In this document: positions 30,216 through 34,687 of the stretch, piece after piece
Layout: every line of letters begins with the position of its first letter
Numbering within the stretch: the stretch's first letter is position 1
The notes under the pieces: generated by a model
Database searches by the model: none
The model's input: the letters and a program-made list of their open reading frames with translations, nothing else
What the model was told of the DNA's origin: nothing
Made by a program: the position numbers and the translations under genes
Origin: a virus
Lineage: Duplodnaviria; Caudoviricetes
IMG/VR virus record: IMGVR_UViG_3300044724_001621
Location: 1-48,475 of that record
Strand: one strand, 5' to 3'
Length of the DNA: 48,475 nt

Positions 30216-31229
30216 CTAAGCTGCGATTCTAAAGATAGACTTGCTCTGTAAAACCTTTCTAACTTTTTCTCCTGCTTGTACTTGCAAAGAAGAAACAGTG
30301 TGAGGACTTTTAGAACGAGTGGTCTGATGATGAGTACTCCAGTCAGTCATCGTATTATACAAGGCTAACAGATTGTTGCCAAGGGAAGGTTTGTAATCAT
30401 TTTTGTAAAGACTCCAAAGAGTATTTAACGAACTAGTCTTACGATCATGTCCGTTCTTAGTCTTAGTAGCTTTATCAAGTGCTTCAAGAATAGATCCAGT
30501 ACCATTATTAATTGAATCAATACTTTGAATAGCATGTTTATTTTCAGATAGTGTAGCAAGAACTTCAAAAGCTTGTTGGTCTGATACAGGTATATGTCTG
30601 TAACTATTCCAAAGCTCACCTTCTTTTTGAAAAGCTTCTAAACAATTACCAAGCTCAACCACTGCACCTTCAATGTTTGAATGCTTAGTATGTCTACGCT
30701 TTGCTACTGCAGTTACAGTACCAATAACTTGTAAGTTAGTACAAATCATACGCCAAGCACCAAGCTCAAAGATAGAAGGCCAAGAACCGTCAAAGCTATT
30801 TCTACCTACTAACTCCATAACAGTCTCATCACCCTCACCAGTCTGCACTGTATGCTCTGGAAAGCGATATCTAGCATAAGCTCTACCACCTTCATGAGAT
30901 ACACTTATCTCGCGTGTAAGACCTTCTAAGTTTAACGAAGAGTTAATAATCATATCTTCCATATAACCAAACTGATCAGCATGTGAAGAAGTATTACGAT
31001 AGTTTTTACCTACAATAGATAACGGCTCATGTGTTTGATCGTTCATAAGCAACACACGCTTGTCGTACTTAACCATACTATTCCATTCTGAATTAATAGG
31101 GTTAATTTCTTCAAACCATAATGGTCTTGTGTAAGTACCAAAAGTAACACTACTAGGTAACGGGCCTAAATCTTCTAGAATTTGTCGGCGTCTATCTGAA
31201 CGACTTGTAAATGTAGTAATAACATTCAT
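30216..31229 (-). CDS. DUF932/DUF945 family early protein
   Basis: NSFDGS...G.WRMICTN motif and LYNTMTDWSTH. Confidence 0.8.
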   Translation of the reverse strand: MNVITTFTSRSDRRRQILEDLGPLPSSVTFGTYTRPLWFEEINPINSEWNSMVKYDKRVLLMNDQTHEPLSIVGKNYRNTSSHADQFGYMEDMIINSSLNLEGLTREISVSHEGGRAYARYRFPEHTVQTGEGDETVMELVGRNSFDGSWPSIFELGAWRMICTNLQVIGTVTAVAKRRHTKHSNIEGAVVELGNCLEAFQKEGELWNSYRHIPVSDQQAFEVLATLSENKHAIQSIDSINNGTGSILEALDKATKTKNGHDRKTSSLNTLWSLYKNDYKPSLGNNLLALYNTMTDWSTHHQTTRSKSPHTVSSLQVQAGEKVRKVLQSKSIFRIAA

Positions 31230-32775: not shown

Positions 32776-32877
32776 ATTACTTCCTTTTTTAATTAAATTT
32801 TTAAAGCCCGTAAGGGTTGAGGGGTTTAAAAATTTAGATCCCTCAATAGTATTTCTAGACTTTGGTTTTAAAAAACT

Positions 32878-32904
32878 GAACAGTTTAACGACATGTTCAG
32901 GTCT
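32878..32904 (-). ncRNA. H-type pseudoknot motif, copy B
   Basis: AGAC-CU-GAACA-U-GUC-GUUAAAC-UGUUC, 10 nt after stop codon. Confidence 0.7.
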
Positions 32905-33118: not shown

Positions 33119-33163
33119 GTAATCTCCTACAATAGTATTTCTAGCTGGATGTTTTTTAAGAGC

Positions 33164-33190
33164 GAGCAGTTTATAGACATGCTCAGGTCT
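33164..33190 (-). ncRNA. H-type pseudoknot motif, copy A
   Basis: AGAC-CU-GAGCA-U-GUCU-AUAAAC-UGCUC, 9 nt after stop codon. Confidence 0.7.
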
Positions 33191-33199
33191 GTCGGGGAA

Positions 33200-33655
33200 T
33201 TAAGCTGTTAGTGTAGCTAAGAAGCTTTGAAGAACTTCAGATGCTGGTCTTGGACTAGCCTGAGTGCTGTACTTAGTCTGTTTCTTGTAAGCTGCTGCGC
33301 TCATATCTATGTTCTTCTCTTCAGCTTGTTGCATTAAATACTGATGAAGACCGGGAACAACATCGTCTAAAAGAACTAACTCTTTCTTTTCAGAACCTAG
33401 AAACTCTTGAACTATTCCATTGTTCAAAGCTGCTTCTTCGTTCTCAGCCTTAGACCATGAAACCATAAAGTCTAACAACAACTTATAAGCTTCATAGTTG
33501 CTAGAGATGCTAGGATCATTCTGCTTCATAAGATCAAAGTCCTCCTTGAACACTGGCTCAAACTCAGGTAAGCATGAAAACCTAGCTGCTATAGCTTTAC
33601 ACTGTGACTCTGTTGCTCTACGAATATTAGAAACACTAGACGTATTATTTTCCAT
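33200..33655 (-). CDS. First early gene, hypothetical protein
   Basis: AAGGAG RBS; first ORF of the minus arm. Confidence 0.75.
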   Translation of the reverse strand: MENNTSSVSNIRRATESQCKAIAARFSCLPEFEPVFKEDFDLMKQNDPSISSNYEAYKLLLDFMVSWSKAENEEAALNNGIVQEFLGSEKKELVLLDDVVPGLHQYLMQQAEEKNIDMSAAAYKKQTKYSTQASPRPASEVLQSFLATLTA

Positions 33656-33794
33656 CTGAGACTCCTTAAGTCTTTAGTTATTTAAGATTAACAAGCGTTA
33701 AAAGGATTTTTCAAGCTTGCAAGAAAGCAAGGTTGTAAAATTCTTAGCTTGTTGAGGTTAAATAACGTGAGGAGTTTCATATGGGAAATGATAC
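33642..33794 (+). repeat. Long imperfect inverted repeat, 153-nt hairpin
   Basis: About 60 bp in seven helices around loop AAGAAA (33721-33726); six G-T pairs on the + strand. Confidence 0.85.
33685..33714 (-). promoter_or_regulatory. Putative sigma70 promoter of first early gene, inside hairpin arm
   Basis: TTGAAA-N18-TAATCT with extended -10 TG. Confidence 0.55.
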
Positions 33795-34180
33795 AAACAC
33801 AGACAGGACTATTTAAATACTAAGCTATTGAGACTGTTAAGTTTTTTAGTCTAGTAATATCCTAGTAATACATACGCTTTACAGTCTTGGAAGGCTTTGT
33901 AAACTAGTAAGGCTTACAAAATAATACGATATAGTTCTATAAAGACTGTCTAGACTACCTAATTCTGTGGGCTACCTAGACCGGGCAGGATGCCATACCC
34001 CCTACCGTAGTATATATAGCAATCCTATACATTTCTAACAGGTTTAGTATGTGTACCAGCTTAGCGGGGCTATAAAGTCTTTACTTAACAACTTTGCAGG
34101 CTATAGAATCAGGAGGGTTTTATAGCTATATAGGGTGTTACCTATATATACTATGCAGCGGGGGGGTCATTGATTACGCC
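33795..34180. other. Non-coding putative genome terminus/packaging region
   Basis: No credible ORF; between divergent arms next to terS; inverted TAGTATATATAG pair, C/G runs, repeated CTATA words. Confidence 0.5.
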
Positions 34181-34209
34181 AGTATACAGTTGAAATCAGC
34201 TTTTGTCAA
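34181..34209 (-). promoter_or_regulatory. Sigma70 promoter, leftward
   Basis: TTGACA-N17-TATACT. Confidence 0.8.
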
Positions 34210-34237
34210 GTATTTATAACTAAAAAGTATAAAAAGC

Positions 34238-34266
34238 TTGACAAACCTTTGATTCAACTCTATAAT
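34238..34266 (+). promoter_or_regulatory. Consensus sigma70 promoter, rightward
   Basis: TTGACA-N17-TATAAT. Confidence 0.88.
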
Positions 34267-34273
34267 ACGAGTC

Positions 34274-34687
34274 ATGAATTATTCTATTGAAAAGAAAAAA
34301 ACAAAAGAACTTACTGAAAAACAACAATTATTTCTTGATAATGTTGTAGAAACGGGAGGTGATCTTAAAAAATCTGCAGAATTAGCAGGATATAAAGGCA
34401 ATCACTACCAAGTTATTCAAAGTTTAAAACAAGAATTAGTGGATTTGGCTGAAAACCTGTTAGCTCATAATGCTCCAAAAGCTGCTTTTAAGCTAGTAGA
34501 GATTATGCAGAGTGATCGTCCGTTTCCACAGGTAAGCTCTAAACTGCAAGCCGCTCAAACTATTTTAGATAGAGTAGGTGTTACAAAAACTGATAAAGTC
34601 AGTGTAGACCATAATGTGTCTGGAGGTTTATTTATACTACCTAAAAAAGAAAATATTGTACTAGAGGGAGAATATGAACACAGTTAA
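34274..34687 (+). CDS. Terminase small subunit (putative)
   Basis: LTEKQQLFL...AELAGY HTH, AAQTILDRVG, GLFILP; upstream of terL. Confidence 0.75.
   Translation: MNYSIEKKKTKELTEKQQLFLDNVVETGGDLKKSAELAGYKGNHYQVIQSLKQELVDLAENLLAHNAPKAAFKLVEIMQSDRPFPQVSSKLQAAQTILDRVGVTKTDKVSVDHNVSGGLFILPKKENIVLEGEYEHS

Follow-up and report, generated by a model that had tools for sequence, protein, structure and literature searches.

The hairpins of T4 that sequester ribosome-binding sites (RBS) are short and form on the mRNA strand of late genes, and the concatemer-junction (CR/M) hairpin of T7, located on the late side of the terminal repeat and not known to mirror a gene start, serves terminal-repeat duplication. 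The T4 genes I-TevI, soc, and e are described as having a promoter inside an inverted repeat whose downstream arm carries the RBS, with a stronger promoter upstream (PMC2988022). In the N4 system, the RNA polymerase is virion-borne, its promoter consists of a template-strand hairpin of 5-7 bp, and transcription of single-stranded DNA (ssDNA) templates leaves RNA:DNA hybrids (PMC4496689). Frpo1 and Frpo2 (ssi), the ssDNA promoters of the F plasmid leading region, are off in double-stranded DNA (dsDNA) and employ a stem-loop that reconstitutes the -10 and -35 boxes (PMC9849209 and PMC11541004, citing Masai and Arai, 1997). A literature search, outside which most subscription journals lay, found no description of a dsDNA phage carrying an inverted gene-start copy such as that analyzed herein.

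The DNA under study, referred to as the window, is a stretch of 48,475 nt in which an earlier note had tentatively placed an Frpo-like ssDNA promoter at 33642-33794. A scan of 40 open reading frames (ORFs) identified the terminase, portal, capsid, primase/helicase, and DNA polymerase of a tailed phage. The large terminase was 65-67% identical to those of the Pelagibacter phages HTVC115P, HTVC103P, and HTVC104P and about 47% identical to those of HMO-2011 and phiM6, and the window is judged to derive from a marine phage related to HTVC103P and HMO-2011. The replication genes, encoding a gp2.5-like SSB, a primase/helicase, a family A polymerase, an exonuclease-like protein, and an endonuclease, run leftward from 33655, which confirmed that the + strand is the template of the early genes as the earlier note had stated. 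The packaging and structural genes run rightward from 34274, and the hairpin sits in the 620-bp gap between the two blocks.

The product of the first early gene gave a helical model with a mean pLDDT of 80. It was assigned to no PHROG or Pfam family, and the best values obtained were an E of 0.5 in BFVD and a Z of 3.6 in the PDB, with Atlas matches being unnamed or below 0.9; an anti-nuclease role may be considered for this protein. Two 66-nt direct repeats (32839-32904 and 33125-33190, 74% alike), located just upstream of the second and third early genes and showing no Rfam match at the gathering score, are probably a common leader element. The early operon also contains a DUF932 gene (30216-31229; 9439-10260 in L108), and DUF932 is found in the F leading region downstream of Frpo1 as well.

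The hairpin over the first gene start

Among 241 tiles of 400 nt covering the window, the strongest inverted repeat was the hairpin at 33642-33794 (score 99 in two tiles; next best 48). Its features and those of the surrounding region are as follows.

33200..33655, - strand: first early gene (151 aa)
33642..33720, - strand: gene arm (5' arm of the + strand fold), with a promoter-like site, leader, RBS, ATG, and the first 14 coding bases of the first early gene
33655, - strand: start codon ATG of the first early gene, on the gene arm
33662..33667, - strand: Shine-Dalgarno AAGGAG, within a 12-bp helix
33685..33690, - strand: -10-like hexamer TAATCT with TG upstream, facing TGAGGT (33753-33758) with one wobble and two mismatches
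33709..33714, - strand: -35-like hexamer TTGAAA, facing TTGTAA (33733-33738) with one T-T mismatch
33721..33726, + strand: apical loop AAGAAA (same loop on a different stem in L005 and L006)
33727..33794, + strand: mirror arm, a condensed copy of the gene arm with AGGAG (33770-33774) and ATG (33781)
33821..33831, unstranded: TAAGCTATTGA motif, just beyond the hairpin foot and present in several relatives
33984..34020, unstranded: conserved GGCAGG..CCA..C-run..TATATATA element, candidate terminase/terminus signal
34181..34209, - strand: strong leftward sigma70-type promoter TTGACA-17-TATACT (11/12), aiming across the conserved element toward the hairpin
34238..34266, + strand: rightward consensus promoter TTGACA-17-TATAAT, upstream of the gene for the small terminase subunit, terS (34274-34687)

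The mirror arm is non-coding and repeats, in inverted and shortened form, the leader and opening codons of the first early gene. The earlier note had described a 153-nt hairpin of about 60 bp with six wobbles pairing on the + strand only, one arm of which carries the promoter-like TTGAAA-N18-TAATCT, the RBS, and the ATG, and all of these elements were recovered, with the hairpin at exactly the coordinates it had given. A strand-neutral aligner yielded 57 Watson-Crick, 6 G-T, and 0 A-C columns on the + strand, with the remaining mismatches being two G-G, one A-G, one T-T, and one C-T. The predicted fold of the + strand reached -33.1 kcal/mol as DNA (z -9.2) and -66.5 kcal/mol as RNA (z -11.0, 61 pairs), and that of the - strand -23.1 kcal/mol as DNA (z -6.2) and -41.2 kcal/mol as RNA (z -7.8); in each of the four folds, none of 200 shuffles matched the energy. 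The helices are short and broken by bulges, the longest uninterrupted one being 14 bp in the window and 25 bp in L005.

Two further possibilities concerning the mirror arm were dismissed. The ATG at 33781 opens only 11 codons and is not conserved in relatives, and a small toxin or peptide encoded by the mirror was rejected for this lack of conservation. A decayed extension of the window mirror into the spacer was likewise unsupported, as 18 of 300 shuffles were equally good.

Gene mirrors and strand bias in related phages

Relatives were collected as 53 loci via terS, 23 via the conserved motif (the two sets overlap), and a few via the first gene. Six of 22 lineages, which were picked by eye, carry an inverted copy over the first leftward start codon. 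All six pair this codon, the part common to them being the leader and start codon, and their stems take in the RBS and ATG along with as many as 35 codons or two entire genes. Besides that of the window, the mirrors are the following.

L004: about 180 nt, short form
L005/6/7/73: 300 nt, short form, of which 104 nt fall within the ORF
L052: about 270 nt, short form
L083 group: 170 nt, short form, branched in four loci by a 76-nt insertion in the mirror arm
L104/105/107: 1.1 kb, giant form, covering two genes

Since the aligner misses branched forms, L077, L094, L098, and L099 were recovered by folding. The first genes have diverged (43, 54, and about 20% identity to that of the window in L004, L005, and L052, respectively), yet each mirror fits its own gene, indicating that the two evolve jointly; neither this coevolution nor the strong upstream promoter directed at the mirror figures in the earlier note. 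Against the window gene, hhalign probabilities were only 0.6 for the L083 gene and 13.7 for the second gene of L107, and their homology to it is only suggested by an N-terminal motif in common.

No mirror could be recognized in L008/9, L010, L050, or the L081 group, nor in lineages having a rightward homologous first gene; that of L090 was weak, and phiM6 had none. The repeat in HTVC103P was unconvincing (score 70 against a null maximum of 61; G-T:A-C 6:10), and that in the AT-rich HTVC115P was marginal (95 against 79-87; 9:1). The window hairpin is a short member of a recurrent gene-mirror family at the early end of these phages. In L050, two leftward copies of the first gene are accompanied by a cluster of near-perfect palindromes in place of the mirror, and L011, L016-L034, and L053 carry a shorter apparent first-gene homologue on the opposite strand, about 930-1280 nt before terS. 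In seven loci of the L081 group, a 32-bp inverted repeat free of mismatches lies 456-386 nt ahead of the conserved element, with no gene start adjacent to it.

Regarding the wobbles, the five short lineages, represented by one locus each (window, L004, L005, L052, and L083), showed a G-T:A-C ratio of 43:5 on the + strand (p 1e-8), and this ratio also departed from the G-T share of 0.57 expected from composition (p 1e-6). The strand preference of the earlier note, which had asked for this comparison, therefore holds in relatives, and it is these relatives that give the claim its strength because the 6:0 of the window taken alone reached only p ~0.03 (two-sided binomial). Chance repeats used as the control gave 21:18 in the adjacent intergenic DNA (Fisher p 2e-4) and 46:66 in leftward (minus-coding) DNA. 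The other mismatches of the short lineages leaned in the same direction, with G-G:C-C at 6:1 and A-G:C-T at 16:3. Outside the apex, the giant mirrors were only weakly biased (28:16 in L107 and 17:16 in L104), and within L107 the bias was strongest near the promoter, with the outer blocks toward the foot showing 5:5, 6:3, and 2:2. Because the aligner inflates the number of G-T columns at the G/T-rich apices of the giant mirrors, the bias claim is based on the five short lineages. In L016 and L034, a repeat joining two divergent gene leaders was unbiased (8:8 and 5:6). Weak inverted repeats about 480-290 nt before terS in L013, L017, L021, L024, and L026 lean toward G-T on the terS strand (14:6, 10:2, 14:5, 18:4, and 14:7, in this order), their scores of 41-74 being in several cases near noise.

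Covariation was observed as well. One pair is A-T in L005, G-T in L073, and G-C in L006, and all four variable columns (of 281) in this trio keep the + strand pairing. The L083 group shows two-sided changes at 5 of its 81 predicted pairs, three of these pairs being adjacent in L077, and its consensus fold holds 81 pairs on the + strand versus 57 on the - strand. Selection on + strand pairing thus appears well supported for the short mirrors. A main role as a cruciform or as a protein operator in duplex DNA was rejected, since either would predict no strand bias, as is the case for the above repeats in L016 and L034.

The bias would also follow if the mirror were a functionless by-product, in which template switching close to the end creates and renews an inverted duplication and deamination of a + strand that is briefly single (C to T, A to G) generates the G-T excess. 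Every G-T column is indeed of the A>G or C>T type on the + strand, as must be the case; the mirror is absent from many relatives; and the giant forms contain many plain mismatches. The unpaired spacers by the inferred end, however, have G+T contents of 0.42-0.58 and no G+T excess, which makes a plain mutational bias such as simple deamination unlikely, and some compensations run against the direction of deamination. In addition, the mirror is always located over the start codon, and even this very unlikely explanation still requires a single-stranded + strand. On these data, the fold-back is real, selected, and strand-specific, and its mechanism can only be proposed.

The likeness to Frpo is that of a long imperfect template-strand stem-loop upstream of first-entering genes, with a proposed use by host RNA polymerase on ssDNA and a possible priming role, and the stability of the + strand DNA fold together with its covariation bears out such a long stable stem-loop. 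Membership in the Frpo class nevertheless failed in three respects, namely the conjugative leading region, the reconstituted boxes, and sequence similarity. The window belongs to a dsDNA tailed phage without known ssDNA entry, whereas Frpo lies in a conjugative leading region. In the phage, the RBS, ATG, and coding sequence all lie within the stem; those of Frpo1 and Frpo2 in F stop about 80-110 nt before the ATG. The better boxes lie on the phage gene arm, the Frpo boxes of F being known by description rather than located in the sequence, and the wobble bias is 43:5 here versus 15:10 in F (9:5 and 6:5 for Frpo1 and Frpo2 with the same aligner). Local similarity to the F regions upstream of ssb and ygeA scored only 15 and 16, which 268 and 213 of 300 shuffles matched.

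Promoters and folding at the RNA level

The gene-arm site TTGAAA-18-TAATCT has 8 of the 12 consensus bases, and this genome yields a match of equal score roughly every 90 nt. Among the six mirror lineages, it exceeded the chance level only in L107 and, marginally, in the window. The "first early promoter" of the earlier note is hence present as a site, while its primacy is doubtful, given this near-chance score and the 11/12 promoter at 34209-34181. That leftward promoter and the terS promoter were found in 54 of 54 sequences (the window and 53 loci, many redundant). At 34181-34266, these near-consensus sigma70 promoters stand back to back and together form an inverted repeat. A leftward promoter across a candidate terminus element recalls the transcription-coupled packaging of T7.

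The boxes of the mirror arm (TTGTAA-14-TGAGGT) are poorer than those of the gene arm: the window mirror lacks an A at -11 in its -10 box, its spacer is 14 nt versus 18, and a promoter scan of the window mirror arm gave no match. Because the arm that would serve as the non-template strand has the worse boxes, the better promoter is present in duplex DNA without any folding. In line with the -10 mismatches pointed out in the earlier note, the stem breaks the -10-like hexamer, differently each time, in the window, L004, L005, and L107; the -35 box is not kept in L005. Disruption of the -10 might just as well keep the mirror silent in duplex DNA.

These promoters also bear on a fold-back of the mRNA as in T4 I-TevI, soc, and e, by which long transcripts from 34209 would bury the RBS and ATG and short internal ones would be translated. 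As in those genes, an internal promoter-like site lies in an inverted repeat with the RBS and a stronger promoter lies upstream, the internal one being near chance here. Consistent with such masking, the leftward promoter is universal in the set, the - strand RNA still folds, the best helices cover the RBS and first codons, and the long RNA lowers the predicted mean unpaired probability between the RBS and ATG+12 from 0.50 to 0.27. Moreover, lineages with a rightward first-gene homologue show no such mirror, and RNA-library contigs bridge most of the hairpin (X18, 33456-33789; X17, 33669-33815), although they come from one study, are strandless, and may represent DNA. The mismatches, however, favor the opposite strand, the gene is early, and the mirrors extend up to 1.1 kb, unlike in T4. 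On the mRNA strand, pairing is not kept, with 5 G-U versus 43 A-C mismatches; the only compensatory path seen passes via A-C; and the L083 group consensus is the smaller one on this strand. We therefore regard masking of the mRNA as unlikely to be the explanation, although, as the - strand RNA also folds, more than one explanation may apply. Neither the gap at 34139-34325 in the RNA contigs nor the X6 break at 33847-33889 carries weight as evidence, and the absence of variants inside the hairpin in X8 and X12, which differ at 16 and 17 positions over the stretches compared, is not significant.

The antisense RNA that the earlier note had offered as an alternative was considered as a + strand RNA arising from inside the early genes and folding into the hairpin as a self-masked antisense or a structured decoy. 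G-U pairs stabilize RNA more than G-T pairs stabilize DNA, the predicted energy gap between the + and - strands being 25 kcal/mol as RNA versus 10 as DNA. RNase III-resistant RNAs have short helices broken by bulges, to which the helices here are similar, and the branched insertion in the mirror arm of one group is also compatible with an RNA. Against this, a search ahead of the stems found no + strand promoter common to the lineages (four of six lineages had no match and two were at chance level), no terminator or U-tract was found after the foot on the + strand, and neither the window nor any of five loci matched Rfam 15 at the gathering score. Furthermore, the antisense portion would be fully sequestered by its own mirror, and RNA pairing would leave block copying in DNA unexplained. 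The proposed RNA stays quite unlikely. A 6S-like decoy and a microRNA-like family were rejected for want of Rfam support; a MIR396 match of 29 bits versus 80 reflects merely a long hairpin.

The predicted genome end and proposed folding of single-stranded DNA

The conserved GGCAGG element lies 233-327 nt before terS in 50 of 54 sequences, as matched fuzzily by eye; its central run is C-rich in most relatives and G-rich in phiM6, HTVC103P, and CRP-1 (coordinates including L100 56-110). The end of phiM6, called by PhageTerm (PMC6256558), lies 55 nt before a similar element, although phiM6 is distant (TerL 47%) and its element was matched by eye. By analogy, the genome end of the window would be located near 33929, approximately 135 bp right of the hairpin, so that the earlier note was probably correct in placing the site near a genome end. 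Terminases close to those of the Puniceispirillum phages are described as generating fixed terminal repeats (PMC7111524), and this account and PMC6256558 disagree on the packaging mode. Five of 30 incomplete loci stop 413-475 nt before terS, a weak hint of an end (p ~0.025, non-independent). Contigs of 8 runs, in which rare forms are dropped, contained no termini, strand-switch joints, or flipped forms, and a search of the literature on the fate of the unpackaged pac end found nothing. The TAAGCTATTGA motif beyond the foot resembles an IHF site.

With a genome end to the right of the hairpin, the + strand would be 3'-ended there, and 5'-to-3' resection would expose exactly the folding strand. 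Such an exposed strand might simply serve DNA processing: following a cut by the terminase or resection of the end, the 3'-ended + strand would fold back, be trimmed to the foot, and prime its own complement, thereby capping the end or aiding terminal-repeat duplication or concatemer formation, and the copying would keep the mirror current. In favor of this, the foot adjoins the inferred end, its distance to the conserved element being 160-194 nt for the short mirrors and 61-70 nt for the giant ones, and the phage proteins include a gp2.5-like SSB/annealing protein and an exonuclease-like one. In L007, compared with L005, L006, and L073, an inner segment of the fold-back that contains the -10-like box and is flanked by two identical stretches of 20 nt appears inverted in one of four contigs, which may be a real flip or a misassembly; L066 and L070 were grouped with L007 for this inversion. 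Together with the block changes in L077, it suggests copying between the arms at the DNA level, and both fit the templated copying expected from such processing. The T7 CR/M hairpin is similar in that an inverted repeat adjoins the terminal region of a T7-like replicon; the phage hairpin, however, lies on the early side and copies the first gene. A role in processing is improbable, since what is conserved is invariably the leader with the start codon and never the foot, the bias in L107 is absent toward the foot, the short forms leave an unpaired tail of more than 100 nt, and strand-switch joints were lacking in the above contigs.

We tentatively favor the reading that the + strand folds back on resected ssDNA near the predicted end and restores a duplex transcribable by host RNA polymerase. 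Host nucleases would be expected to resect such an end. With the end 100-400 bp to the right and the + strand 3'-ended, a host helicase-nuclease or the phage PD-(D/E)xK-like nuclease would resect 5' to 3' and strip the - strand. Between about -45 and +38 relative to the start site, the mirror would then take the place of the coding strand, and the -10 region would be pre-opened. It would in addition push the RBS and start of the nascent transcript off the template and render them translatable, and the trapping of RNA in RNA:DNA hybrids in N4 provides a reason to pair the RBS region. The new RNA could further prime resynthesis of the lost - strand, and the G-T pairs would confine the fold to the lone + strand and disfavor a cruciform in duplex DNA. 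The element would thus work like Frpo while being built differently. Considering the weak boxes of the mirror, the inconsistent promoter, and the patchy distribution, we hold this reading short of probable.

Still more doubtful is the broader proposal that marine podophages keep a self-renewing mirror, from 150 nt to more than 1 kb, as an ssDNA expression and rescue cassette, in which an entering or freshly cut end is expected to be resected and the surviving template strand snaps back to become both transcribable and self-priming. If the fold acts on ssDNA, it would represent an undescribed way for a dsDNA phage to start its first early gene. The use of a single strand to express first-entering genes would then be common to dsDNA phages and conjugative plasmids, and the ends of phage genomes would be built for nuclease resection rather than merely protected against it. 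Even if the fold acts in the mRNA, a mirror co-evolving with a coding sequence would be an unusual regulatory design. The 153-nt form is a minimal version and is open to synthesis and direct in vitro testing.

As in N4, the template hairpin is more stable than its complement, lies near the first-entering end of a podophage, and has GNA loops in some relatives, whereas the stems here are 60 to more than 400 bp and the window loop is AAGAAA. A short-stem C-GNA-G hairpin was absent from the early region of the window and, as the apex of a mirror stem, was found only in the L083 group. Concerning a virion polymerase, four large virion ORFs had no Pfam match and no polymerase motif by pattern, and a 2079-aa protein had no PDB match. 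The L083 group apex reads GCGNAGC on the + strand (N = A, C, or T). GNA triloops are described as the only class forming these extraordinarily stable DNA mini-hairpins, the RNA counterpart of the related GCGAAAGC being far weaker, and such loops occur at phage ssDNA priming sites, which would also suit the priming of a complement by the folded strand (PMC13037366). Throughout the 22 lineages, C-GNA-G loops numbered 24 in 32 kb on the early side versus 4 in 50 kb, approximately ninefold per base, with the early-side loops being on both strands (11 and 13) and in related lineages, while the hairpin of the window itself has no GNA loop. The GNA loops thus provide hints of a fold at the DNA level. 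Some of the GNA mini-hairpins lie inside the first-gene homologue, where they encode a CPKD motif, as exemplified by that of L016 about 896 nt before terS.
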